A DNA stretch of 64,000 nt from Mytilus trossulus (Eukaryota). The stretch covers positions 57,288,001 to 57,352,000 of the forward strand of contig NC_086375.1 in assembly GCF_036588685.1 (NCBI RefSeq). Reading direction: 5' to 3'. Below are positions 4,835-64,000 of the stretch, piece after piece. Numbering within the stretch: the first letter of the stretch is position 1; every line of letters starts with the position of its first letter. The position numbers and the translations under genes were made by a program. The notes below the pieces were generated by a model. It made no database searches. It was not told where the DNA came from and worked only from the letters and a program-made list of their open reading frames with translations.

Positions 4835-5870
4835 TTGATTTTTGTCTCACGAAAGTCAATTTTTGTCTCACGAAAGTCAATTTTGTCATCACAAAAATGA
4901 ATTTTGTCGTCACAAAATTGACTTTTGTGAGACAAAATTGACTTTTGTGAGACAAAATTGACTTTTGTGAGACAAAACTCAATTTTGTCATTTTTGTTGA
5001 GACAAAATTCAATTTTGTCATTTTTGTTGAGACAAAATTCAATTTTGTCATTATTGTTGAGACAAAAGTCAATTTTGTAAATTTTGTTGAGACAAAAGTC
5101 AATTTTGTTAATTTTGTTGAGACAAAAGTCAATTTTGTCAATTTTGTTGAGACAAAAGTCAATTTTGTTGAGACAAAAATCAATTTTGTTGAGACAAAAG
5201 TCAATTTTGTGACGACAAAATTCATTTTTGTGATGACAAAATTGACTTTCGTGAGACAAAAATTGACTTTCGTGAGACAAAAATCAATTTTGTTGAGACA
5301 AAATTCAATTTTGTTAATTTTGTTGAGACAAAATTCAATTTTGTCAATTTTGTTGAGACAAAAATCAATTTTGTCAATTTTGTTGAGACAAAAGTCAATT
5401 TTGTCAATTTTGTCTCACAAAAGTCAATTTTGTCTCACAAAAATCAATTTTGTCTCACAAAAATCAATTTTGTGTAACAAAAGTCAATTTTGTGTAACAA
5501 AAGTAATTTTTGTGTAACAAAAGTAATTTTTGTGTAACAAAAGTCGATTTTGTGTAACAAAAGTCGATTTTGTATGCAAATTAGTTCACAGAAACCAAAC
5601 TGAACTAATTTAAATACAAAATTGACTTTTGTCGCTCAATTTTCAAATTAGGTAACAAAAGTCAAGTCTGTGTAACAAAAATGAATTTTGTCATGACAAA
5701 AGTGACTTTTGTCCGCTGATAGATAATTTTGTATGACAAAATTTCAAATTTGTAGTATGATACAAATTTTGTTAAACTGAACTCATTTTTGTTGAACAAA
5801 AGTCACTTTTGTCCGTACAAAATTGAATTTTGAGTACAAAACCACAAGAGTCCCATTCGGCGCCCCGTAA
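4835..5870. repeat. Complex satellite of about 21/30-bp quasi-palindromic units with an internal inversion
   Basis: Repeated TTTTGT..ACAAAAGTCAA units in both orientations; exact 94-bp inverted repeat 4835-4928 / 5194-5287. Confidence 0.9.
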
Positions 5871-6705
5871 TTGGCACTCATATTGATTCTTCTGCTTTAT
5901 ATGTACCCAGTTTTATCTTTATTAAATCACAACTTCATGGTGAATTTCTTAGACTGAACACACCGTCATATTTCAATAACGATCAGTACATCTTGGGTGA
6001 GAACCGTACTTAATCATGATCAAACATAGTCATCTTTAATAAAAAAAAAAAAAAAAACAACAACAACAAAACAACGTGCACGTGTATTTCAGTTTTCAGT
6101 GGATTTGACTTACTCTACGCTTTTACAATGATACCTTTTAAGAAACCACATACTTCAATTTGAAGTTGGTGACACTAAAACTTCATCATAAACTATAACC
6201 AAAACATTTACAATAAACAGAGACGGACGGATGGACGGACGTAAAGACTTTTAAATATAACGACCATCTCTATCGTCAAACAGGGTAACAAAATCAAAGT
6301 CGTGAATTGAGTTACATGTCAGTCTTGAGACTCAAAGTCAATCAACATAAACAAAATCTTGAGATTATTAGACATAAAGTATAATGCATCAGTGCAAAAA
6401 GTACTTTTCTTATATTTGTTACAAGAAAACAGGTAAAACCATAGTATCAAAGTCTGCATAAGTTCGATAGTTTCCTCGCTCTTCTGCCAAGTATGTTTCA
6501 AACCGTTCCAATAAATTCTGATATAAAGTGGAGGCTTCCAACGCAATTGTTGGTAAACCAAGTGTCAGACGAAATAAACGTAACTTCTTTAGTATTCCTG
6601 TCAAGAGTTGATACAAATGCAGTGATGAATATTTCCATGTATTCTAGCCCTATTTCAAAAGAAACCTTATGCATTTCTCCATTCTGTCACTTTAAAAAAT
6701 ATTTA

Positions 6706-7006
6706 ATTGTGCGCACAATATATTTATTTTGTGCGCACAATATATTTATTTTGTGCGCACAATATATTTATTTTGTGCGCACAATATATTTATTTTGTGC
6801 GCACAATATATTTAAATTGTGCGCACAATATATTATTCTGTGCGCACAATATATTTAAGTTGTGCGCACAATATATTTAAGTTGTGCGCACAATATATTA
6901 TTTTGTGCGCACAATATATTATTTAGTGCGCACAATATATTATTTTGTGCGCACAATATATTTAAGTTGTGCGCACAATATATTATTTTGTGCGCACAAT
7001 ATATAT
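6706..7006. repeat. Minisatellite, 14 x 21-22 bp, each unit with palindrome (TT)GTGCGCAC(AA)
   Basis: Counted directly from the sequence. Confidence 0.95.
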
Positions 7007-7496
7007 TTTTTTCTTTGCATGTCCCTAGCGGGGCTCCGTACATTTCTTCTAAATTTCTACTTTTTAGGCTAATGAATTAAATAATTGTTGTAACTTTCAC
7101 TCATTTAGGTTTGAAATGTTATGATACATGAGTAATTGAAATTTAATGCTGAATGAATTATCCATTATTTTTTTTCGTATACAGCCGGATGTGACGTACA
7201 ATTATTTGATGGTATTACAACTATAACAGAAAACCATGCAACAGTTAACATGCTTATCTTTAGTTATAGCAGATTTTTAAATTTCCTCTGTGGTCACCGA
7301 ATTTTATTTGATTATGCATATTACAATAATTAAAGGCGACTGAACTAAACCTGAGGCTTTTCGTAGTAGAAGTATGAAATGATTTCTTCTACAATTCATT
7401 TGTTATCTACCCCTTATGCAGTTTGATATTGGTTTTATTGTTTTATGTTGTGTTGTTTGTCTTTGTTGTGAGTTGTATGATGGTTTGTGCTCGTCT

Positions 7497-7781
7497 GACT
7501 TCGATGTTGACATGAATATCAATAATGTGGTAATTTTTATAAATTTCCTGTTTAAAAAACTTAGAAATTTTCGAAAAACTAGGGATTTTCTTATCCCAGG
7601 CATAGATTTCTTTAGCCGTATTTGGCACAACTTTTTAAAATTTTGGGTCCTCAAAGCTCTTCAACTTTTTACTAGTGTGGCATTATAAATATTTTGATAT
7701 GAGCGTCACTAATGAGTCTTTATGTAGACGAAACGCGCGTCTGGCGTACTTAATTATGATCCTGGTACCTTTGATAACTAT
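7497..7781 (+). mobile_element. Partial retrozyme copy (family 1) with mutated hammerhead at 7704-7746
   Basis: Aligns by eye to about 62320-62603; core reads CTAATGA instead of CTGATGA. Confidence 0.8.
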
Positions 7782-9039
7782 TTTGAATATTTATTGCTCT
7801 CAATTAAGCAAAGTCGATCGTTTTCAGTATATTCACAGATAGGACATTCCGTTTTAAATTTTCCCGGAGTTCAGTATTTTTTTTATTTTACTTTTTTATG
7901 CTCACTATATGAATCAGTGTGAGACGACAAAATAGCTCATTTATGATAAAAAGATGTTAATGAGACTGCATGATACATATCATCGTCTTAACGACTATCA
8001 AAAACAGCTAACATATACATTATTCCTTTTTCATGCCACAATGTATTATTCTGTTAATGTACTGTTTTACAAAGGCTAGTTGAAGTCGACATAAAACGTT
8101 AGTTTTCTCTTTGAATTGTTTTACGTTGTTTTATCTGGGCCTTTTATAGCAAAGTCATGGGTTGTATGTTTATATATCTAACCGTAGATGGTGTTTACTG
8201 CAACTAGAGAAAATATGCGTAGACTAACTAATATAAACAATTAACTTTCATAGTAGTTGGACATGTGAATTTCATGCTTTGCTTAACTTTGAAGTAATAA
8301 GTTCACCAGCAATCGATCATTTTCCCAATTTTTTTCCATTTCTACGATTTTCTTTGGGTTGATATTAAAACAAATATAAGCATTAAACTATATTTACTAC
8401 CCTCTCTATATAAAACGTTATATACCAAAATGATTGTATGGTAACCTCAACAACAAAAAGACACTAAGCACAGATCTGAGAGTACGTACTCGTAGTTACA
8501 GACAACTTGTTTAAAACCACTAACAACTTATAAAAAAGCATGCATGTATGACTGAAGACAGAAATAATCCAACACGATAAGAAAACGAGAAGCATGAAGA
8601 ACATATTGATAGTTTGCAAGGTAAAACAAATTGATGACGTATTAATTTTGAACAACAAAATTAAAAATAATATTAAAAGCAAAAAAACCGCAAAAATTTT
8701 AAAGAAATCGCCATTCTTCTACTTATTATAGTTTCCATAAATTTATATTTATTTGTTAATTCAGAATCTGTTACAAATTAACTGTAGAATATGCCTTATT
8801 TCTTGATTCGCAGAGTTCACATTTTATACAATAATAAAGAAATAAAAACGTATATTGAGTACTGCTTAGAAAACTGATGTTAATATCTATATCTATATAT
8901 AGATAATATTGTCGATTTAGGAAAATACCTATTTATTTATTCAGTCGTCGTCATGGTGCAATGTAATTTAACTATCGATACTCCTCGATCTTTTACGCGT
9001 CAATCATAGGTTTAAAAATATTTGTCAAACTTGCCATGC

Positions 9040-24450: not shown

Positions 24451-26705
24451 ATGACATTCAAAGTTGTTCTTGCTGTTTTGGTAATACTAAGTATACAATT
24501 TGTGTATAGTGTGGAACAGGATGCTTATAGTCTTCTGTTTACTGATAGCAAGGACGTGTTTCTGAATAAACCAATACATTTCCAGTATCCGTTGCAAAAA
24601 TGGCTGCGTGGCTCTCTGGTAAGATAATTTATTTCTAGAATCAAATAAGCTTCTTAATTCACGTTCCTTTCACGTGTGTTCTGTATTTGTATGTATCAAA
24701 GTTCACATTCAGGTTACAATCAACTAATGGATCATGAACTACTGTTTTTAGCTAATCATACGCAAGTTTATTGAATATTTGAATAATAATATGCAGTATA
24801 ATGCTATGTCGTTCAAAAGAATCCAAAGATAGCACCAAAGCTTCATGTTTTCATTTATATGTGTTAATAACATATTGCTTTTCTTTAATAGGATGAAAAT
24901 GTCTATTATTATCTTGTCCAACAAATTCAGGATAATGTAGGACATATACCAAAATAATATCCACAGTGACTCGCAACAAGCTTAGGAAAATTACTCTTAA
25001 TATTAAAATGTGTTTTACCATACATTTTGTTCCACTCAGTTGGTACCTATATTGCGTATTACACATTCGGATATTTTATGAACAGCTGTAGGAAATGAAG
25101 ATTCCCTATACCTTAATTTATATTATTGATTTACATCTTTTGGTTGCTGGATGGATCAATTTAAACTCATTTGAAAAATTACAACTATGATGTTTATACG
25201 AAAGAGTATAAAATAAATCTTTCTAAAATACTATGCTAATTAAAAATCATGTAGAATTATAAAAAAAATATCGACGTTGATGAACCAATATATATATTTT
25301 TTACCATTTACTCCAGGTACGAATAGGTCCAGCTATGTTTGGGATGGGTCAGAGAAATTTCACACACGCATATGATGGTTTTGGGAAAATTTATAACTGG
25401 AAATTCTATGGAAATGGATCAGCGTCTTTTTCTCAGGACTTTTTACGGTCTGAAACATACAATACTTCCAATGAAATAAAAGATATTGCCAATTTTTTGA
25501 CATTTGAAAGTGTTTCACCACCATTTCCATTGAATAGGCGTGAGATCTCTGTTTTGAATGGATTTGATAACACAAATGTTAATGTGTATAGATTATTCAA
25601 TGAAGAAAAGAAGTCATACGAATACATTGCATTAACAGATGCATGGAAGGTATACCAGTTCGAACCCACTTCTATAAATACCATTGGTGAAATTGATCCG
25701 CCAAACCCACGTGGAACATATATTGGATTTATTGATACAATGTCCTCAGCTCATCCCGTCCCAGAGTATAATTCTAGTTATCACTTTACATTTCTAACGA
25801 GTGTTAGTCTCATTCCTAAGGTCAAAAGTCGTCTATCGGTTATTAGAATGAAGTCGGCCTTTGAGCGAGAATTGGTAGCTCAGTGGGAAGTTGACAAAGC
25901 GCCTTATATGCATTCATTTTCTGTCACGCAGCGTTATGTTATACTATTCGCAGCTGCGTATTATACAAACATAGGTAAAATGCTGAAATATGCCAATGCG
26001 TATGAAGGTCTGGAATGGTTTCCGTCTGAAAAAGCCACTATTTATGTTGTTGAAATTAAAACTGGCAATATACATACTATCCAAACAGAAAATGGCTTTC
26101 CATCACATCATGTAAATGCTTACGAAGACAACAATAGAATTATTATGGACGTAACTATGTTTCAAGATCCTACTTATTCAAAAATATATGAACTTGATAC
26201 GTTGAGATCGCCTAATAAAAGACAAAACGCACAATATACACCACCAGTAATTAAACGTTATTCAATCAACTTGAATGCAACGAATGCAACAGTCACTACC
26301 TTTTCTCCTAATTCAATCTTTCCATTCATAAATAATTTTGATTTCCCGTGCATAAATGAAAAGTACAGACATCGTAGATATTGCTATATTTACGGCGTCG
26401 CTACCAAAAGAGACACCACATTATTTTCAAGTACAGCTTTAGTGAAAAAAGATGTTTGCGGAACAAACCAAGACAGTGCATTTGCTTTAGATAACCACTA
26501 TCCTGCAGATATGTGGTTCATACCTAATCCCAATTCCACCAGGGAGGACGATGGCGTTCTTCTGACTCCAGTTCTTGACGGAGAGAAAAAACAGAGTTAT
26601 TTGTTGATGCTAGATGCTAACACAATGGCTCCGATAAACAGAGGATATTTGCCGTCATTGGTTCCATTTACAATGCACGGACGATTCTTTTCAGATTTAA
26701 TTTAA
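24451..26705 (+). CDS. Carotenoid cleavage oxygenase (BCO/RPE65 family) paralogue 1, 518 aa, signal peptide (exons 24451-24618, 25317-26705)
   Basis: KWLRGSL|VRIGP, HAYDG, DNTNVN, four Fe-ligand His motifs (SAHP, YMHSF, HHVNAYE, MHGRF) and EDDGVLL; phase-0 GT-AG intron; hydrophobic N-terminus MTFKVVLAVLVILSIQFVYS. Confidence 0.92.
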
Positions 26706-28929: not shown

Positions 28930-29890
28930 CCTAGTAGACAGTACTGACATGAAAATACAGATATTGTGTTATTAAAATTTGTGCTTACAAAATGTTGTAA
29001 ATCAAGGAATCTATCTCCTTCATGCAAAGTTCTGTTTCATTGTCTGGTTTGGCTATCAATAGCTCATTACATTTTCAATAAGTTTTGGATCTTAAAATAT
29101 TTGGTCTAGATAATAACTCAAGTGTAATTCATTGTCGAAATGCGAATCTGGTGTAGAAAACTTGGTACTGTTATGATATTACTTTCACTTGGTAGATACC
29201 TCTACTTGGGGACTGTTAATTCACAACGGTATCATTACCTTGTAGCCAATAATGGATGCCGCCGACATGAAAATACGGATAATAAGCTGTTATGATTTTC
29301 TAATTCATTTTTATATATCTTAATCATGGAAAGAAGCTCTGATTCATTGCATGTTTTGAATATACTTTTTGCCCCCCTTTGGGTTATAAGCTCTTCATAT
29401 GTTTTATTAAGTCTTGTATTTTCAAATAGTTTGGACTAGAGCATCATTGATGAGTCGTTTGTTTTCGAATTGCGCATCTGGTGCAGGAACATTGGTATCG
29501 TTAATGTAATTACTACTACTGGGTCGATACCTCTGCTGGTGTTCTGTTGGTCCGAGAGGGTATTACCAGCGCAGTAGCGAGTACATTTGTAATTAAGTAC
29601 TGGCATGAAAAAAATAGAAAAAATAGTTTTATATTACTTTTAAAATAAAGGAATATATCGCCATCATGCATATAGTCTTTGATTCCATGTCCGGTTTTTA
29701 TGTGTTTTTTTTTAACTTATTTAAACTTTTTTTTTACGCGTTTTTGTCTTTGTTTGGTTTATAAGCTCTTCATATGTATTAAATAGCTAGTTTTGAATTT
29801 TCTAATGTTTTAGCCATGAGCATCACTATATATACTTTTATGGTCGAAATGCGCATTCGGTGCAGAACAAATAGTACCGTTAATATTATA
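28930..29890 (+). mobile_element. Degenerate tandem array (about 3 units) of family-2 retrozyme
   Basis: Decayed GAAATGCGCATCTGGTGC motifs at 29137, 29467 and 29846 (spacing 330 and 379 bp). Interior gggtcgatacctctgctggtg...gagggtattaccagc is homologous to 62260-62310. Confidence 0.7.
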
Positions 29891-33271: not shown

Positions 33272-35531
33272 ATGGTGAACTTCGTTACTTTTGCCTTGGC
33301 GGCCGTCTTTATTGGCTTTTCAAGTTCTTTAGAAGATGATTTTAGCCGACTCTTTTATGACAACAAGGAAACGTTCGTAGATAAACGGATAGTTTTTGAA
33401 AATCCATTACCGAAATGGCTACGTGGTTCACTGGTAAGATATTTTCAATTTCTTGAATAAATCATTGGTATCCATCCTAATACTGAAAAAATTGCACATT
33501 GCACATCAACCTATATATATCTCAATAATTAAAGACCTACATTTCAAATAAGTATTTTGAAATTTATGATCTTTCAATGTATTTTTCAAGCAGTTTAACA
33601 TAAAAAATCACGAGACATATTTTTTTCAAATGCTTTACTCTTAAAAAACAAGCAGACACACACACATACTTGTTATGTATAGAAAAAAATGAACTGTCCC
33701 AGATGAAAAAGATGTCATTTACAAAAATGTTATCATTTTGAATTTCAGTTGCTAACATCATAGCTTTACAAGAGCCAGTTTAAATAAATCAATATTTGCC
33801 CTGCTATAAAAATCATGCCTTTATACAGTCAAATATAGTCACTTCAATTTAAAGCGGAAGGTTTAGTAAAAGGCTTCTCATTCATATTGAGAAGAACTTC
33901 TGTGAAGTTTGCATTTAGTGAATATAGAAACAAGCTGCAGAGAAGGCGAACACAGTTGGGGTTCATTAAAAACAATTAGTAATGGAGATGAGCATATTAT
34001 ATTTATTTCAGAGGTAAACTAATATGTAAACTTTTGTATTCAAAAGCGAAATTACTTTATGATACGCTGCAAATTATTATTTAGTTATAAAAACATTCAG
34101 TGTTTTCACGTCGATCACGAACTATATTTTCATTAATATTATTTACAGGTACGAACCGGTCCCGGGATGTTTGGAAATGGACCAAGAAATTTTACACATG
34201 CTTTTGATGGTTTTTCAAAGATTCACAGTTGGAAATTCTATGGAAATGGTTCAGCATCTTTTTCAACGAATTTTGTGCGTTCATCTGTCTATAACAATTC
34301 CATAAAAATAAACAATATTGACAATTACTTAACTTTCGAGAAGCCTATTCCACCATTTTCTTTAATGCAAGAGGAACTTGGGCTCTTGAAGGGAATGGAT
34401 AATATGAATATCAACGTTTATCGATTTTTGAATTCAGGTACGGGACAATATGAATATGCAACTTTATCAGATACATGGAAAATGTACCAAATAGACCCAC
34501 TTACGGTTGGAACCATTTCACCTGTAAATGCAATGAAACCATCAGTTCCACAAGACTTCGTTAGTTTGATGTCGTCCGCCCATCCAGTTCCGGAGTACGG
34601 CACAGGACACCATTTTACCTTTTTAACCAGCGTTAGTGTTCTTCCTGGAGTTCAGAGTCGATTATCACTCATGCGAATAAAATCTACACATGAAAGGGAA
34701 TTAGTTGCACAATGGGGAGTTGACAAGGCACCTTATATGCATTCTTTTTCTGTTACTCAAAATTACGTCATTCTGCTTGCTGCACCGTATTTTGTGAATG
34801 TAGAGTGGATGTTGAAAAATGCAGATGCCTATTCTGGGCTCCAATGGTTTCCCAAAGAAAAAGCTAATTTTTACGTTATTGAGATAAAAACTGGTAAAGT
34901 AACTGCTATCTCCACACCAATAACTAACCCTACACATCATGCAAATGCTTACGAAGAAGATAACAAAATTATAATTGATATATGCACAACTAAAGATCCA
35001 TTTTTCGCCACAACTTTTGAGGTTGGTGTAATTAGAGATGTAAACAAAAGAAATAAGGCAGACTATACGCCACTCTTCAGTCGATATACTATAAACGTAG
35101 AATCAAAAACAGCCATAGAAACAAAATTTCCACCTAATTCGTCGTTTCCTTTTCTAACCTATTTCGATATTCCTGCTATCAATGAAAACTATAGACATAA
35201 AAAGCATTGTTTTGTTTATGGCGTTTCATTTAAAAAAGACTTCAAATCTTTCGCTAGAACTGCACTTTTGAAAAAAGACACTTGTGGAAAAAATAAGGAC
35301 AATGCCTGGTCATTGGATGGGCATTTTCCAATGGAAATGTGGTTTGTTCCAAGACCAAACTCTACGGAAGAGGACGACGGTGTTCTACTCACTCCAGTTC
35401 TTGATGGAGCAAAGAAAGAAAGTTATCTGATGATACTCAATGCTACAACAATGACTGTGATGAATAGAGGTTACTTAAATACGTCACTTCCTTTCACCAT
35501 TCATGGTCGCTTCTTTCCGGATGTTGTTTAA
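33272..35531 (+). CDS. Carotenoid cleavage oxygenase paralogue 2, 514 aa, signal peptide (exons 33272-33433, 34149-35531)
   Basis: PKWLRGSL|VRTGPG, HAFDG, SAHP, YMHSF, HHANAYE, EDDGVLL, IHGRF; same intron position as paralogue 1; N-terminus MVNFVTFALAAVFIGFSSS. Confidence 0.92.
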
Positions 35532-53300: not shown

Positions 53301-56300
53301 TTTCGACACAAGGAAATAATTCACAAAATATTCTATATTAGTTTCAAGTTAAGTTAAAGTATAAACATTGGAATTTTCTTTTATATTTTGGCAGCCATTT
53401 CAAAATGTTGGCCGTATGGATATTTTTGACACAGGAAATCAATTTGGAAAAGCATTTTTAATCATTATATCTTTGATATCCCATTACAAATTATGTTTCA
53501 CTAAATTTGTAATTCTTTGATAAAAACTAAATTTTGAAGCAAATTTTTCACTTTTCAATAGGGAGTAGTAAACAAAAAGAAAATAGGTTTTATATTTCAC
53601 TCAGCATAGGAGCAAAATTCACTTTATTGTTTTCATTTTACACTTACTTATAGATGCTATAATCAGATAAAATGAAATACACATGTTCATCATGTTAACA
53701 TGACTTACCTCTTTCAGAGATAGAATCATATTCAAAACAGTGTGGTCCTGGCCATTGATTGACAACCTAAATTATCCCATTGACTGGGACAGATTAGGTG
53801 AACATTTGTCTGTAACGACCATTGCTCACTTCTTACTTATTGTAAAATTTGAACTGTGGGGTCACCAAAGGTTCTTAACCCCTTTAATAATAAAATAATT
53901 CGAAAAATTATTCAGGAATAACCTTTATGTTTTGATTTATATTATTGATATAAATCAACACATCGTATTATTCCGGATTCGTTTTTCGAATTGCTTTATT
54001 TAGGTGTTGAGAACCTTTGGTGACCCCACAGATTCAATGTTTTTAACAAGTACATAGTGAGCAGTGATTGTTACTGACAAACGTTCACCTAATCTGTCCC
54101 AGTCAATGGGATAATTTAGGTCGTCAATCAATGGCCATGACCACACTGTTTTGAATATGATTCTATTATGTCGAAAACATTAAGTCCTTACCATAATATG
54201 GTTCAAACATTTCTGCAGGACCTGCAAAGAAATCCTCCAATTTAAAGTCACATGGTCCTCTCAATGTCATTCCAAATCCTTTTGCTTCAGCTTTACTCCT
54301 CCACAGCACATATTCACTGAATCCACCAGGACCAGCACAAATATCAGAAAAATATAACAGTTCAGAAGGATTCATCAATGGTTTCTAAAACAATTAAACA
54401 GCACATGTTTTAATTTTGTGATGATGTATCATAAATCTGTATAAAATTTGAAATTTATGTTGTTACATGTAATGTGCATAAAGACAGTAATGAGTATTTA
54501 AAGTAAACAAGTACTTTCTTATAAGAGACTGTATCAGCAAGAAAATCTTCATTGCAATGATTTTAAAAAAACAATTCACTTCTTCAAGTTACCAGATTTT
54601 ATCAGTTCAATACATTGTCTGTCATAATCAGTATATATTTCCTATTTCTTCCCCTATTTTAAAAGTAAATATTTTATGAGGAAAATGAATCAAGACAATA
54701 ACATTATAGTAAAACTGACTTACTCCATCAACATCTAATGGTTTTGTAAACATGAAGTCTAATATGGCATCCATGTTGGCCATCTTCATAGCTGCTCTGG
54801 ATAAAAAAGTAGTCCATAGTTAACAATGAGAAACAGAGATCAAATATTATTCAGCATATATATGTGCTCCTATATACATATAAACTTCACCATATAAACA
54901 CTATTAATTTTTGTTATTGCTCCTTTTCTTCTTTTTTCTATTCTAACCAAGAATTTCAAGAGAAATCTTGCTCAGTAATCATTATTATCTGACGGGAATA
55001 TAGTAATGAAGATTTTTGTCACTCTACTATATGCACTAGGCAATCTAAAATAATCTGACTGTTTTCTACAATGGTACCACATTTATGCAACAATTATGAT
55101 TATTAGCTATTATAAAAGTAGCTATACTTATTACAAGGAATTTCATACTACACAAAAGTGACTAGACAAAAAAAATCCCCTGCATTTAACCATCAGGCTT
55201 TGAGTTACAAACAGTGATAGTCTGGTACACGTGTATATAAGAAATACTAGCTCAGCTGTTGGTCATAAGGTCATATTTAAAGTATCTCTTTTTGAATGGT
55301 TAAAGATTTATTCCACAAAAACTAGATGTTGCCCTCATGGTGTACAAACCTAAATCAATAATGATTTCCTTTAAAACAAGAATGTGTCCTCAGTACACAA
55401 ATGCCCCACTCACATAATCATTTTCTATGTTCAGTGGACCGTGAAATTGGGATAAAATCTCTAATTTTGCATTAAAATTAGAAAGATCATATCATAGGCA
55501 ACATGTGTACTAAGTTTGAAGTCGATTGGACTTCAACTTCATCAAAAACTACCTTGACCAAAAACTTTAACCTGAGGTGGGACAGACAGACAAACGGACA
55601 GACGAACGGACGGACAAACAGACCAGAAAACATAATGCCCATCTACTATCATAGGTGGGGCATAAAAAAAACCTGGCTAAGAAAATTAAAGATATACCTG
55701 TTCAGGAAAAATGCACCTCTTATTGTTTCATATGGATTTGATCTGGTTCTAGCTCTTCTCATTTCTTCTGGTTCCAAGTTATCAAATATACTCTAAAATA
55801 TAGGTAATCATTTAATTTGTATAGCTAATCTATCAAATCTGATTTGCATTAGGTATGCTTAAACTGTTTATTAAATCTTACTCTCAAAATTATGATTTGA
55901 GCAAAAACATATTTTACCTCACAATAGTTTCCAACTTTCTTGAAATATAATGTGTATAGCTAGTACATAACTTGCAATTACAAAACATAAGCTCTCAAAA
56001 TGTTTTATTCTATTAAGTAAATAACACAATATTTTAAAAACTAAAAATATCAATTTTACTTAATGCGTTATAGTACTGAAGAATAGTTTTCTTGTTTGGG
56101 TAGCCCTCATTACTGACAGACAGTCAGATAGAATATTGGACAGATGCACAGGAAAGAAAATACATTGCCCTCACCTATAAAAGGTGGCTATAAAAATTCT
56201 TCAAAGTTCAAAAAAATTGTCACCTTACTACTAAGAACCATCTGTAAAATCTTCTCATCACAAAATTGGGTCTCATCACCTATTGTTCTCTTTTTCTGAA

Positions 56301-59300: not shown

Positions 59301-61783
59301 CAACTTTGATTTCACATTTTAACAGAGGAATATTGGTGTCTGCTAACTTGTATTTTTTTCTGGTTTCTAAAATTCAGTCCTAAGATAACAATAACAAAAT
59401 AAACAAAAAATAGACATACATTAATTGCTACTAATTATATTGCTTGCCAAAATATGAAGTCTAGACCACCACTGCAGTTTTAATTTCATGTCAAGATTAA
59501 GATTTCTCACTATTAAATTTCACATGGAATAAATCTTACCTTTTCTTGTTCAAAATCCCAATCAATATCAGCTGGTTCTAAACCTTTTAATGTCAATCCT
59601 AAGCCTCTACGTCCTCTTTGCTTGGATGCCTCTATGATGTCTACAATACCCTGGCCACGCTTTCCCAAACCAGAACCTTTTTTGTGACCCATCTTTGCCT
59701 ATATGGTATATACAGATACAAAAATCATAAACAAAAGAAAATTCTTCACATATAATTGAGAAAACAATAAATACATGAATGCAATATATTTTACTTCTGT
59801 CTGTCAACTTTCTTTTCAATACAACATAGTCAAGGCTTGTAAGCCTCTAGATTGATCAATAAAACATCTAAGAAATCTGTTATGATATTTTTTCAGAATA
59901 CCAAAGTCTTGAATTGGATAATGCCTTGAACTCCATCAAAGACCTTTAACCCTATTTTCCTATTCAAACTGACATATAACTGTGCAACATCTATTGTTTT
60001 GTGTTAACTGCCAATGGAACTATAATAGCTGTAAAATCAAAATCAAAAAAAGAAGAACATGTCAATGTGCCCGGGATTTCATATTATCAGCATATAACTT
60101 TAAAAATGTGTCACTACAAATGTATTTGTGTCTCTTATGTAAGTACAAATCTAGTGATAATTCTGCATTGTTGATGTCACAATGAAGGAAAAGAAGACAG
60201 GAGTTTAGTTACACATGACTTTAAAGACAAAACTTAACAAGGACTTGACATGAAAAATTCCTTCAATCTGTATTTTGAGAACTCAAACGTAGTATAATTT
60301 TTCATACCATCATCCTTTTGGCAAAATCAGTATACCCATCCAATTGACTGGATGTCTTGGCCTTCTTGACTGCTGGCTCTCCAGCACCGATGTCATCACC
60401 ATTGCCTCCATCATAGACTTGAAGTTTTTCATTGTCACTATCACTATCACTATCAGAATCTGGCAAGAAAACAGATTACAATTATTATATGCATCAAGAT
60501 CAAATAAAAATGACATTGCTTTTTAAATTACTAACACTATAAATGTACAATGATCATGATGATGTATAAAATAAAACAATTGACAAGTTTTTTTTTTATA
60601 GGGTTTGCTTATTATAATAACATCCTTTAAAACAAGAAATGTGATAGCAGATACATGCAAAGGCTAAAAACAGTGAATTCCTCTAAACTGCATTCCCGTA
60701 ATGTCTTGATTAATATAATTATTATTTTTTCAAATTTTTGTGTCTGCATGCCTTGTTTTAATTTAACAAAGTATTTTCACATCATCAAGGTTCAATTAAT
60801 TCATTTCAGGTAATTAAATAAACTTATATACAACTAAGGAGTTGTTGTTTGTTTTTTTGGCGATTGCATCACGTAAGCAAAAATTGCAAATATGTACATT
60901 AGTGCCCTAGAGACTAGAATTCATAAACATGACAAAGGACTGTCTCCAAGTATTTGTATAATTTGTTGAAAAATCAATGTGGAGACCAAAATCATGCATA
61001 TGCAAACCTGAAAATTATGGCGTCTTGCAAGGCTTTTTAAATTATTTCTGTTATGCCTTCCACAGAAAAAATAAATAAAATAGACTTTGCAAGACCATTA
61101 TTTTTTAGACTAGCAGGTCTATGTTATTTAGTCTCTGGTGGAGGGTTGTCTCATTGACAATCATACGGTTCATACCAAATCATCATATTCCTGTATTGTC
61201 AGTAGGTTAACAGTTCATATCACAACTATGCTTATCGCCGAGGTCAATTTCATTTTCATTGATATTGATAAACTGATAATGCATGACATGTGCAGGATAA
61301 CAACTGTGCGAAGTCATAAAAATCTTAATTTCAATTTTATTAAATTGCAGTCCACTATAACACTTAAGCATTTGACTGTACTTTTAAATAGCAGTCTACC
61401 AGTCATTATAAAAATCACCATAAAGTATATTAATGATTGTCTTTTATTAAGAACATCTGTATAACTTGTATTTCTTTTAATATGCAATGCCAACCTAATT
61501 TTTGTTTGTGTTCTTTTTTCAATTGTTCATGAACATTAATAATGTGTTAACTGTTGATATTTATAGCCTTTTTTCTTCTTTGCTGTGAATACCACTGTCA
61601 CTCTAATATAATTGTAATCAATTTAACTATTGTAAGTTTATTGTCTTAATTTTGTATGCCATAACCATTTAATGTAAATGTGTTTGTGCGAATAAAATAT
61701 TGTCTATTGTCTATTAACTTTTTTTAGAGTGCAATGTTTGAGTAGCAAAATATTGTGTTTGCTTCTTTACCTTCTAAGTTCAT
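44386..61783 (-). CDS. CMTR1: Cap-specific mRNA (nucleoside-2'-O-)-methyltransferase 1, about 803 aa, 22 coding exons
   Basis: Exons in transcription order: 61783-61771, 60459-60308, 59698-59540, 59163-59071, 56295-56224, 55792-55698, 54796-54724, 54384-54192, 53101-52983, 52734-52638, 51981-51849, 51213-51028, 50496-50440, 49827-49770, 49380-49312, 48870-48730, 47760-47635, 46986-46895, 46116-46000, 45791-45673, 45281-45173, 44524-44386 (sum 2412 nt, phases consistent). Domains: G-patch ([16 protein letters not shown]), FtsJ-type MTase ([46 protein letters not shown]) and C-terminal WW ([15 protein letters not shown]). The 13-nt first exon is the least certain. Confidence 0.95.
46435..46497. 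repeat. 63-bp near-perfect palindrome in a CMTR1 intron
   Basis: 31-bp arms with one mismatch around a single central base. Confidence 0.9.
47981..48119. mobile_element. MITE with 5-bp TSD GACAG; related copy at 17447-17597
   Basis: cactggcagatcca / taaatctgcctctg flanked by GACAG on both sides. Confidence 0.65.
49948..50275. mobile_element. hAT-like MITE
   Basis: TIRs caggattctcactaagg / ccttagtgagaaccctg; internal ggactcacc repeats. Confidence 0.7.
52388..52599. mobile_element. TA-flanked MITE
   Basis: TIRs tactgtggattcatt / aatgaatccacagta. Confidence 0.8.
53720..54166. mobile_element. Fold-back element (about 220-bp imperfect arms) in a CMTR1 intron
   Basis: atagaatcatattcaaaacagtgtggtc...gaccacactgttttgaatatgattctat; complementarity continues to the centre near 53945. 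Confidence 0.88.
56897..58651. mobile_element. Non-autonomous DNA transposon (1.75 kb, nested insertions), 5-bp TSD TGCAA
   Basis: TIRs CAGGGGTTAAGAAAT / ATTTTTTAACTCCTG; subterminal CTAGCCC repeats; TGCAA on both sides. Confidence 0.65.
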
Positions 61784-62171
61784 AATGTCAGATTGAAATA
61801 CACCATTTACCAAAATTTGAAAAAAAGAAAGTAAAATTAGATTTTCAACTTTCACTTTAAACGGAAGCTATACCAAATTTACCGTCAAAAAGAAGAATAG
61901 AATCTAACTTGATTGCAGTAAACCGGCGTAGCCCGTAACCGGAGGAGATGAGTCTTCACTTTTAAACTATTTGAAGATAAGAATATAATATACTAGTATT
62001 CTATGTTACATCCATCGAATGTACATTTGAACAAATGGGCTTTTAGGACAAAAGGCAAATATTATACAAATGTGTTCCCATACATTGAAAATAGATTCTA
62101 CATAGATAATATATATCCTCAATGCTCTTCAACTTCGTATTTATTTGGCTTTTTAACTTTTTTGATCTCAG

Positions 62172-62213
62172 CGTCACTGATGAGTCTTATGTAGACGAAA
62201 CGCGCGTCTGGCG
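62172..62213 (+). ncRNA. Type I hammerhead ribozyme, intact core; predicted cleavage after GUC at 62208
   Basis: cgtca-CTGATGA-gtct(tatgt)agac-GAAA-cgcgc-GTC-tggcg: stem I, conserved core, stem II and palindromic stem III (ACGCGCGT). Confidence 0.9.
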
Positions 62214-62526
62214 TATTAAATTATAATCCTGGTACTTTTGATAACTATTTACACCACTGGGTCGATCTCACTGCTGGTGGACGTTTCGTCCCCGAGGGTA
62301 TCACCAGCCCAGTAGTCAGCACTTCGGTGTTGACATGCATATCAATTATATGGTCATTTTTATAATTTTTCTGTTTTCAAAACTTTGAATTTTTCGAAAA
62401 ACTAAGGATTTTCTTACCCCAGGAGTAGATTACCTTAGCCGTATTTGGCACAACTTTTTGGAATTTTGGATCCTCAATGCTCTTCAACTTCGTATTTATT
62501 TGGCTTTTTAACTTTTTTGATCTGAG

Positions 62527-62568
62527 CGTCACTGATGAGTCTTATGTAGACGAAACGCGCGTCTGGCG
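62527..62568 (+). ncRNA. Type I hammerhead ribozyme, intact core; predicted cleavage after GUC at 62563
   Basis: Identical to the 62172-62213 motif, 355 nt downstream. Confidence 0.9.
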
Positions 62569-62639
62569 TATTAAATTATAATCCTGGTACTTTTGATAAC
62601 TATATATTATTATGAATGAACCCTTGGCGGTTCAATACT

Positions 62640-63213
62640 TTAAAGGGGCACTAGCTACGATATATATAACTATACAAATCCTTGGAGATATAAAATATAA
62701 ATTCAAAAATATGATTTTTTGTTTATTCGATTATTAATGAAAGTGAAATAGTGAAATGACAATTCGCTTAAGGCAGCCAGCATGGTTCACTGATTTTGTC
62801 AATTTAAGTAACGAAAAATCGAGGATGAATTATTCACTTACAAGTGAATAACGCGACCTCATTAAATCCGCATTCATGGGACATTCAATTCAACACCTTG
62901 GTTAAAGATCGATTACGCATGGGTTATGCGTGTTCAGTTATTAAAAGGAAAAGGATGCCAACATTCAAGTGAAACAAAGGTAAATAATATGATTAGCTGA
63001 TACGATTTACAAAAGTTAATCCATAAACAGGTTTACACAATCATTAACTTATTTTTTTTACATATAACATGAAATCAAAAAGAAATACAAAATGCAACTG
63101 CATGAGATCGCTATCTATTTATATAAGTTTAGTATGTTTATTTTGTACCATGTTATGTGGCCGTCGGCAGTTTTCGGAGAAATACCAATAGTTAATTAGA
63201 TGGCGTCTAGACT
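62640..63213 (+). repeat. Dispersed repeat beginning TTAA-AGGGGCACTAGC (possible Kolobok-like fragment)
   Basis: The same 5' end occurs at about 27561-27715; no matching far TIR seen. Confidence 0.45.
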
Positions 63214-63869: not shown

Positions 63870-64000
63870 CAAATTTGACTGTCCCTTTGGTATCTTTCGT
63901 CCCTCTTTTAGAATGAGTCACTCATTTTCCCAACATCACTTGTTTCCTGTAACTCAGGCTTCCATACTGGACTCTCATAGTCTTAAAAGGAATTTATCCC

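Follow-up and report, generated by a model that had tools for sequence, protein, structure and literature searches.

The insertion at 62115-62603 of the window (the whole stretch of 64,000 nucleotides of Mytilus trossulus DNA that was analysed) is best explained, with good probability in our view, as a 1.38-unit copy of a hammerhead repeat with Naiad-like ends, which the Naiad protein would have inserted from circular or uncut tandem RNA. The locus itself is an ordinary copy of an already known kind, and what is new here is the apparent derivation of the ends of a mussel retrozyme from Naiad, which seems to be unreported: neither a link of mussel retrozymes to Naiad nor a description of the 5′ stem-loop was found in the accessible texts of the literature searched, Repbase and subscription papers lying outside the search. 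Judged from these sequence likenesses, the retrozyme is probably moved by Naiad, and it is likely a non-autonomous Naiad derivative that carries both Naiad ends in register, of which the 3′ match is short. The features of the insertion are collected in Table 1.

Table 1. Features of the retrozyme insertion, in positions of the window
Feature	Position	Strand	Description
Whole insertion	62115..62603	+	about 1.38 units of the 355-nt retrozyme; start 5′-truncated, 3′ end at the fixed family end
Direct repeat 1	62115..62248	+	terminal redundancy, equivalent of the PLE pseudo-LTR; from sequence comparison
Hammerhead 1, type I	62171..62214	+	core 62177-62183, stem II 62184-62196, stem III 62200-62207; predicted cut after C62208
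Predicted self-excised monomer	62209..62563	+	355 nt, 38.6% GC, without ORF of at least 70 aa
Naiad-like 3′ end inside monomer	62230..62250	+	14/21 identical to the last bases of Naiad-A; 15/21 in a typical copy
Naiad 5′-end motif	62253..62315	+	63 nt, 87% to the start of full-length Naiad-A; predicted stem-loop, outer stem 62256-62261/62308-62313
Direct repeat 2	62470..62603	+	from sequence comparison
Hammerhead 2, type I	62526..62569	+	predicted cut after C62563
Tail past cut site	62564..62603	+	40 nt; reverse transcription is inferred to begin where it ends

The first-pass annotation had described 133-bp direct repeats that differ at about one base, and these were recovered as repeats of 134 bp each at a spacing of 355, with a single mismatch (62169 C versus 62524 G) and with an ambiguous first base at the repeat start, where the flank is TA-rich. 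The C at 62169 is private to the first copy, as 83 of 84 other distinct monomers have G and none has C; 62514T is a rare allele (3 of the 84), yet it is present in both repeats. The insertion had also been called young, which holds in a relative sense only: the nearest of the 84 monomers is 98.6% identical and the best relatives overall 98-99%, while the other retrozyme copies within the window stand at 69-87%. The flank is single-copy DNA. No target-site duplication was found, such duplications being longer than 4 bp where metazoan non-LTR retrozymes have them, and no empty site was found in the three contig sets and one read set searched. The flanks match each other in inverted and not in direct orientation: the 5′ flank at 62101-62115 repeats the 3′ junction at 62601-62616 almost perfectly as an inverted copy (10 nt exact, a 1-nt gap and 4 more), an AT-rich likeness that may be due to chance or may be a trace of PLE second-strand repair.

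A covariance search with Rfam Hammerhead_1 (RF00163), as had been proposed, matched both cores at 33.0 bits each (E 6.2e-6); the gathering score being 34, both lie 1 bit under it, and the scan of the window at the gathering threshold therefore returned no match. All core bases are present in both ribozymes, and the GUC triplets end at 62208 and 62563, so that the announced 355-nt monomer between two intact cores is indeed there. Stem I of hammerhead 1 (62171-62176/62209-62214) has 6 bp including two G-U pairs, and in each ribozyme stem II has 4 bp and a 5-nt loop and stem III has 2 bp closed by a GCGC loop; with an open helix I, helices I-III and the conserved core, both are of type I. The two had been called identical, which is true of their cores and helices and not of their surroundings, as the 62169/62524 mismatch falls within a bulge of 4 nt that separates stem I from the extension predicted for it. 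A loose hammerhead core pattern gave 4 matches in the window against 0.31 expected. A hammerhead on the minus strand at about 62262-62310 was rejected, since neither a descriptor scan nor Rfam found an intact core there, and the look-alike at 62277-62292 is the Naiad hairpin.

The 34-nt core of the family has 11,463 exact occurrences in the genome of 1.3 Gb, against 0 for the control. Many of them lie in arrays with a period of 354-355 nt, tandem repeats from dimers to multimers with a type I hammerhead in each unit, as in metazoan non-LTR retrozymes with their units of 150-450 bp; the longest arrays count between 15 and more than 70 units. About 5000 hammerheads, in two families of 350-390 bp repeats, have been reported from M. 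galloprovincialis together with abundant circles, ligated by RtcB (PMC7229834). The type I hammerhead and the 355-nt unit fit these published repeats, as do, for metazoan non-LTR retrozymes at large, the low GC content and non-coding nature of the monomer; the earlier assignment to the mussel non-LTR retrozymes is thereby borne out, and by analogy the insertion is almost certainly a member of the published Mytilus family. The predicted fold of the circle, with 51% of bases paired, is no more stable than shuffled sequences (z -0.05). Older, damaged retrozyme copies lie in the window at 7498-7783 (+), 38177-37881 (-) and 29419-29577 (+), representing families 1, 2 and a distant third, and all three retain the word TGGTAYC in the tail. 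The window also holds arrays of 20-22 nt tandem repeats at 4840-5812 and 6699-7012.

The relation to Naiad is carried first by the 63-nt motif at 62253-62315, the sole significant match to the 3370-bp Naiad-A unit (E 2e-18). At 8 of 10 long-ORF Naiad-A loci, the same 63 nt are matched directly behind the element's own 3′ end and before the ORF, and the order of Naiad tail and stem-loop in the retrozyme is the order at a Naiad head-to-tail junction. The match in the tail is a short one, spotted only in hindsight, and as background 11 of 117,979 window 21-mers reach 15/21, 4 of them being Naiad ends. Between the end of Naiad-A and the outer stem of the motif lie 6 nt; copies of the retrozyme family mostly stop 4-7 nt before that stem, and those of the second retrozyme family do likewise. 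A start codon follows the motif at a similar distance in Naiad-A and in the retrozyme, and is altered at 62338 in the 62115-62603 copy.

The motif is predicted to fold alike in Naiad-A and in both retrozyme families. In a set of 10 related sequences, and for a structure chosen by the analyst, 5 of 16 stem pairs change on both sides, and 93% of cells are paired compared with 36-51% in slid controls. The private changes at 62267-62268 of this copy would weaken the second stem (-23.3 versus -28.7 kcal/mol). In the supplement of PMC8557442, a core 11-mer of the motif turns up 11 times, and in 10 of these cases it stands at the start of a labelled Naiad consensus, a count of carriers only; the consensuses are CGi, Sglo, Tgra, Mcor, Mgal, Bpla, Skow-1, Pfla-1, Pfla-2 and Cmel, and their flanks differ and pair by eye. 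This spread of the 11-mer argues that the motif belongs to Naiad and was taken by the retrozyme. Skow and Pfla are presumably acorn worms. Rfam gave no match to the stem-loop at E up to 10, and a metagenome scan for the motif returned 120 loci, nearly all of them chance bacterial matches and one mussel-like. A pseudoknot in the motif was considered and rejected, the extra pairing not being kept in Naiads.

The putative partner was reached from a Penelope-like fragment beside one retrozyme array, which led to an abundant family (10,134 candidates, 150 scored). The Naiad-A ORF has an N-terminal GIY-YIG, a DKA motif and an RT in a 1000-aa frame, the order that is diagnostic of Naiad (PMC8557442), and one Naiad ORF in the genome reads by eye nearly as the Naiad_Mgal and Naiad_Mcor of that paper's supplement. 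Intact Naiad-A ORFs are present at L177, L179 and L181. No hammerhead was detected in Naiad-A by a descriptor scan, in which the positive control worked. The window contains many short Naiad 3′ ends, one at 63870-63910 and others in at least five more places.

Direct junctions between Naiads and retrozymes were considered as proof of template switching and rejected, being mostly Naiads inserted into older retrozymes. They have no clean strand bias (56 same-strand and 31 opposite-strand matches, 8 of the 56 from one array); the 30 same-strand loci fetched include 7 nested Naiads, 4 fusion-like cases (plus L023), one amplified array and one complex case, and the 30 fetched from the opposite strand are largely nested also. 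One candidate Naiad-retrozyme fusion (L060) proved to be a Naiad head-to-tail junction. Inside retrozymes, Naiad has two insertion hot spots, one within stem II of the hammerhead and one within the tail, each at a TT|AT-like site (L070, L085, L102, L107, L115, L116). A 29-nt match to the retrozyme tail was at one point taken for the 3′ end of a second Naiad family; it is instead a captured, truncated retrozyme tail inside the UTR of a Naiad_Mgal-like subfamily (L140:550-578, L157, L159, L160, L163, L165), which carries other repeats there as well, and a tail of 29 nt is the product to be expected from a cut linear monomer.

The ends of the dispersed copies bear on how they were made. Among samples that come from targeted searches and not from all copies, 53 of 54 independent 3′ ends at the fetched loci lie +36 to +47 nt past the cut site, and 54 independent 5′ ends are scattered over unit positions 1-327. 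A fixed 3′ end, 5′ truncation and partial tandems are features of PLE-type insertion, and such ends are those of copies made by target-primed reverse transcription that begins at a fixed point. In the second retrozyme family, which has a 7-nt longer tail, 26 of 29 ends again lie just before the Naiad motif; therefore, the insertion ends follow the motif and not the ribozyme. Because reverse transcription begins downstream of the cut, it would run off a cut linear monomer after only about 40 nt, and the template of ribozyme-bearing copies must accordingly be a circle or an uncut tandem RNA; the 62115-62603 copy crosses the cut site twice. Unit-to-unit divergence in short copies (0-7.5%) is not uniformly below the nearest between-copy value, so that this comparison does not tell a single circular template from a tandem one.

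Transcription of the family was followed in RNA run X24, one raw run of which about 6% was read. There, 5162 of 8,710,588 records fit 62250-62760, and about 80% of the family reads have one orientation, consistent with the ribozyme strand. Depth is continuous through the cut site at over 1000 and then drops to about 5 in the 3′ flank, and no pile-up of read ends occurs at the cut site in this run. Joins of 62603 to 62250 are present in 530 reads, and are no proof of a circle because this joint is ordinary monomer interior; short junction reads and divergent RT-PCR likewise do not distinguish circles from the many genomic tandem arrays and tandem transcripts. The private alleles of the copy are nearly absent, as 876 of 892 reads have the family G at 62267 where the copy has C, and contigs under the species label of X24 match the flank at about 93% only. 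X24 therefore says little about the 62115-62603 locus, the run probably being from another species or haplotype. Three further contig sets of uncertain kind also contain the retrozyme family, and a search of sequencing runs listed no carrier recorded as RNA, which weighs neither way.

That the 62115-62603 copy itself yields circles in vivo is rather doubtful. Circle release from it requires a transcript that begins upstream of 62171, and were the 5′ motif an internal promoter too, which is putative, the 1.38-unit copy would have none upstream of ribozyme 1 and would depend on read-through. Transcription of the whole unit by Pol III, considered from tRNA-like A and B boxes seen by eye, was rejected, since the monomer has six runs of at least 5 T. 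Around the insertion, the minus strand of the window encodes an FtsJ-type methyltransferase (Pfam PF01728; exons 54169-54384, about 59541-59700 and about 60310-60462), with a G-patch-like and an acidic exon, a gene that we take to resemble the cap methyltransferase CMTR1. A CpG-containing candidate first exon lies at about 61883-61960 on the same strand, with the retrozyme about 150 bp upstream on the opposite strand; this exon had zero reads in the set searched for the empty site. Elsewhere in the window, two long single-exon-like frames of the RPE65/carotenoid oxygenase family stand in tandem on the plus strand (25284-26705 and 34137-35531).

Based on these observations, we propose the following course of events. 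Tandem copies would be transcribed and cleaved by their hammerheads, acting either one by one or in the double form, after which a ligase of the host would circularise the monomer, as published for the Mytilus family. The Naiad protein may then bind the stem-loop and nick AT-rich DNA, and reverse transcription would start 4-7 nt upstream of that structure; the model for this step is the internal initiation of an anole PLE, whose RT has been reported to start internally, to need RNA 3′ of the start and to cut or prefer AT-rich DNA (PMC11167929). With a start about 40 nt downstream of the cut, the template would have to be continuous across the cut for any hammerhead-containing copy, and 1.38 rounds of the template would leave two near-identical repeats. 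In its fullest form, which we favour by a modest degree of belief, the proposal is that mussel retrozymes are ribozyme-bearing mini-Naiads; that the stem-loop, found from bivalves to acorn worms, recruits the Naiad RT and sets the start 4-7 nt upstream; that only circular or tandem RNAs are fully copied; and that the circles parasitise the hammerhead-less Naiad, itself copied from tandem or circular RNA.

The nearest alternative keeps the Naiad partner and takes uncut tandem RNA as the template, the circles being abundant by-products and the hammerhead a passenger in transposition. In the anole system, hammerhead mutants had no effect on insertion, unprocessed RNA was the dominant substrate and, in the accessible text of that paper, no reads ended at the cut site (PMC11167929); read ends at the cut site are likewise missing from X24, Naiad-A has the same end geometry with no hammerhead found by the scan, and the long arrays could supply tandem RNA. 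Against this stand the circles, whose share of the mussel retrozyme RNA was 75% to over 95% by northern blotting (PMC7229834), and the conservation of the hammerhead, the most conserved part of the unit at 0.993 versus 0.975 in the AT-rich body, a difference partly biased by how the copies were found. Taken together, these points leave the passenger role a tentative but real contender, below the proposal of parasitic circles.

A second alternative, closer to the first-pass annotation, holds that the ribozyme acts as an obligate double hammerhead and that the 62115-62603 copy is an active source of the 355-nt circle. The stem III palindrome had been read as the signature of dimer cleavers. It does let two copies share a predicted 8-bp helix III, as in the obligate-dimer hammerheads (newt satellite 2, axolotl HHR_Amex1 and minimal PLE hammerheads), where a palindromic helix III region likewise allows the double form, and in the folded 62116-62603 transcript the inter-copy palindrome helix has a pairing probability of 0.63-0.74. 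By folding energies that ignore Mg2+ and tertiary contacts, forming the double hammerhead costs +8.7 kcal/mol relative to the free ensemble and forming two single folds costs +20.4, so that the double fold is predicted to be 11.8 kcal/mol better; one single hammerhead costs +5.3 to +8.8 kcal/mol above its local ensemble. The insertion about 150 bp from a candidate host first exon, on the opposite strand, may offer a read-through source.

However, the palindrome is the Rfam family consensus and therefore no mark of obligate dimers. The obligate-dimer hammerheads have a helix III of one bp or none, whereas the mussel motif has two and a tetraloop, a form described as the invertebrate type, and a M. 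galloprovincialis clone of a single-ribozyme repeat cleaved at about 0.1/min (PMC7229834). Most invertebrate motifs are said to cleave as monomers (PMC7761336), and of the predicted dimers from Xenopus, in vitro cleavage was seen for just 1 of 9 (bioRxiv 2026.07.22.740005). The family G at 62267 in X24 and the drop in depth in the 3′ flank also count against activity of this copy, weakly so given the probable other species or haplotype of that run. An obligate double hammerhead on an active locus is thus unlikely, and the modelled double hammerhead is available and probably helpful, yet not required.

A third alternative would derive the retrozyme from, and have it moved by, a canonical hammerhead-bearing PLE (Neptune, Poseidon), with the captured Naiad motif as a promoter or stabilising structure only. 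In Xenopus, 24 of 57 retrozyme families are homologous to known repeats, nearly all of them PLE pLTRs (bioRxiv 2026.07.22.740005), PLEs with a C-terminal endonuclease do exist in the present genome, and Naiads capture foreign pieces, as the retrozyme tail in one UTR indicates. These PLEs amount to 6 loci in about three families only, in which no motif, hammerhead, tail or retrozyme match was found except in neighbouring insertions, and it is the Naiad motif that the ends of insertions follow, both in Naiad-A and in the two retrozyme families, which makes such a partner improbable. The weakest reading, a satellite spread by DNA-level duplication with an incidental ribozyme, appeals to the arrays of 15 to more than 70 units, some with flank or Naiad pieces in the unit, which attest DNA-level amplification, and is for the dispersed copies largely refuted by the fixed 3′ end and random 5′ truncation that mark target-primed reverse transcription and by the single-copy flank of the 62115-62603 copy, so that we give it hardly any credence. 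In the higher-order arrays L088-L095 (G000:C7:40.31 Mb) and L031, retrozyme units are combined with a Naiad 3′ end or with flank DNA into one larger repeat unit, which shows DNA-level amplification after insertion.

In 2020 the question of which enzyme mobilises the retrozymes of animals had no settled answer (PMC7229834, PMC7761336), the review among these stating that the repeats lack any motif that would indicate a partner (PMC7761336), and for vertebrates a partner was argued by phylogeny in 2026 (bioRxiv 2026.07.22.740005). With a named partner that has intact ORFs, a 63-nt RNA element and a predicted start, this question becomes directly testable. If the proposed Naiad partnership is true, the stem-loop would be the first cis-signal proposed for the Naiad clade, which is closely related to telomerase RT, and the case would support the idea of hammerheads as parasites of PLEs (PMC8557442).

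Among known systems, the closest are the non-LTR retrozymes of M. galloprovincialis (Cervera and de la Pena 2020, PMC7229834), which share the 350-390 bp repeats (construct DRtz_Mg353), the type I hammerhead, two similar families, thousands of copies, low GC content, tandem dimers to multimers and sense transcription; the likeness to DRtz_Mg353 is one of described features. That paper, in its accessible text, names PLEs merely as candidate partners, whereas a Naiad motif is identified here. The plant LTR retrozyme differs in its type III hammerhead, its LTRs of about 350 bp and its GC content of over 55%, and viroid-like RNAs with ribozymes on both strands differ from the mussel element, which has no minus-strand hammerhead by the scans above. 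The Naiad PLEs (Craig et al. 2021, PMC8557442) have in common with the retrozyme the 5′-terminal motif, a similar 3′ end, the junction order, partial-tandem and 5′-truncated insertions and AT-rich targets, whereas they are 3.4-4.4 kb long and without a canonical hammerhead, and the retrozyme has 355 nt, no ORF and a canonical hammerhead; the relevant passages of that paper describe neither the 5′ stem-loop nor a mussel non-autonomous partner. Xenopus retrozymes, described as derivatives of PLE pLTRs (bioRxiv 10.64898/2026.07.22.740005), are likewise non-autonomous PLE partners with a common terminal sequence, but they concern vertebrates and hammerhead-bearing pLTRs, mussels going unmentioned in the accessible text, while the mussel partner belongs to a clade without a hammerhead and has the 5′ UTR and the last 20 nt in common with the retrozyme. 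Finally, the anole Poseidon element PAc (Frangieh et al. 2024, PMC11167929) starts reverse transcription internally, downstream of its hammerhead, and requires RNA further 3′, as proposed here; PAc is of another clade, autonomous and with start sites inside its ORF, and is therefore likened to the mussel retrozyme by mechanism and not by sequence.
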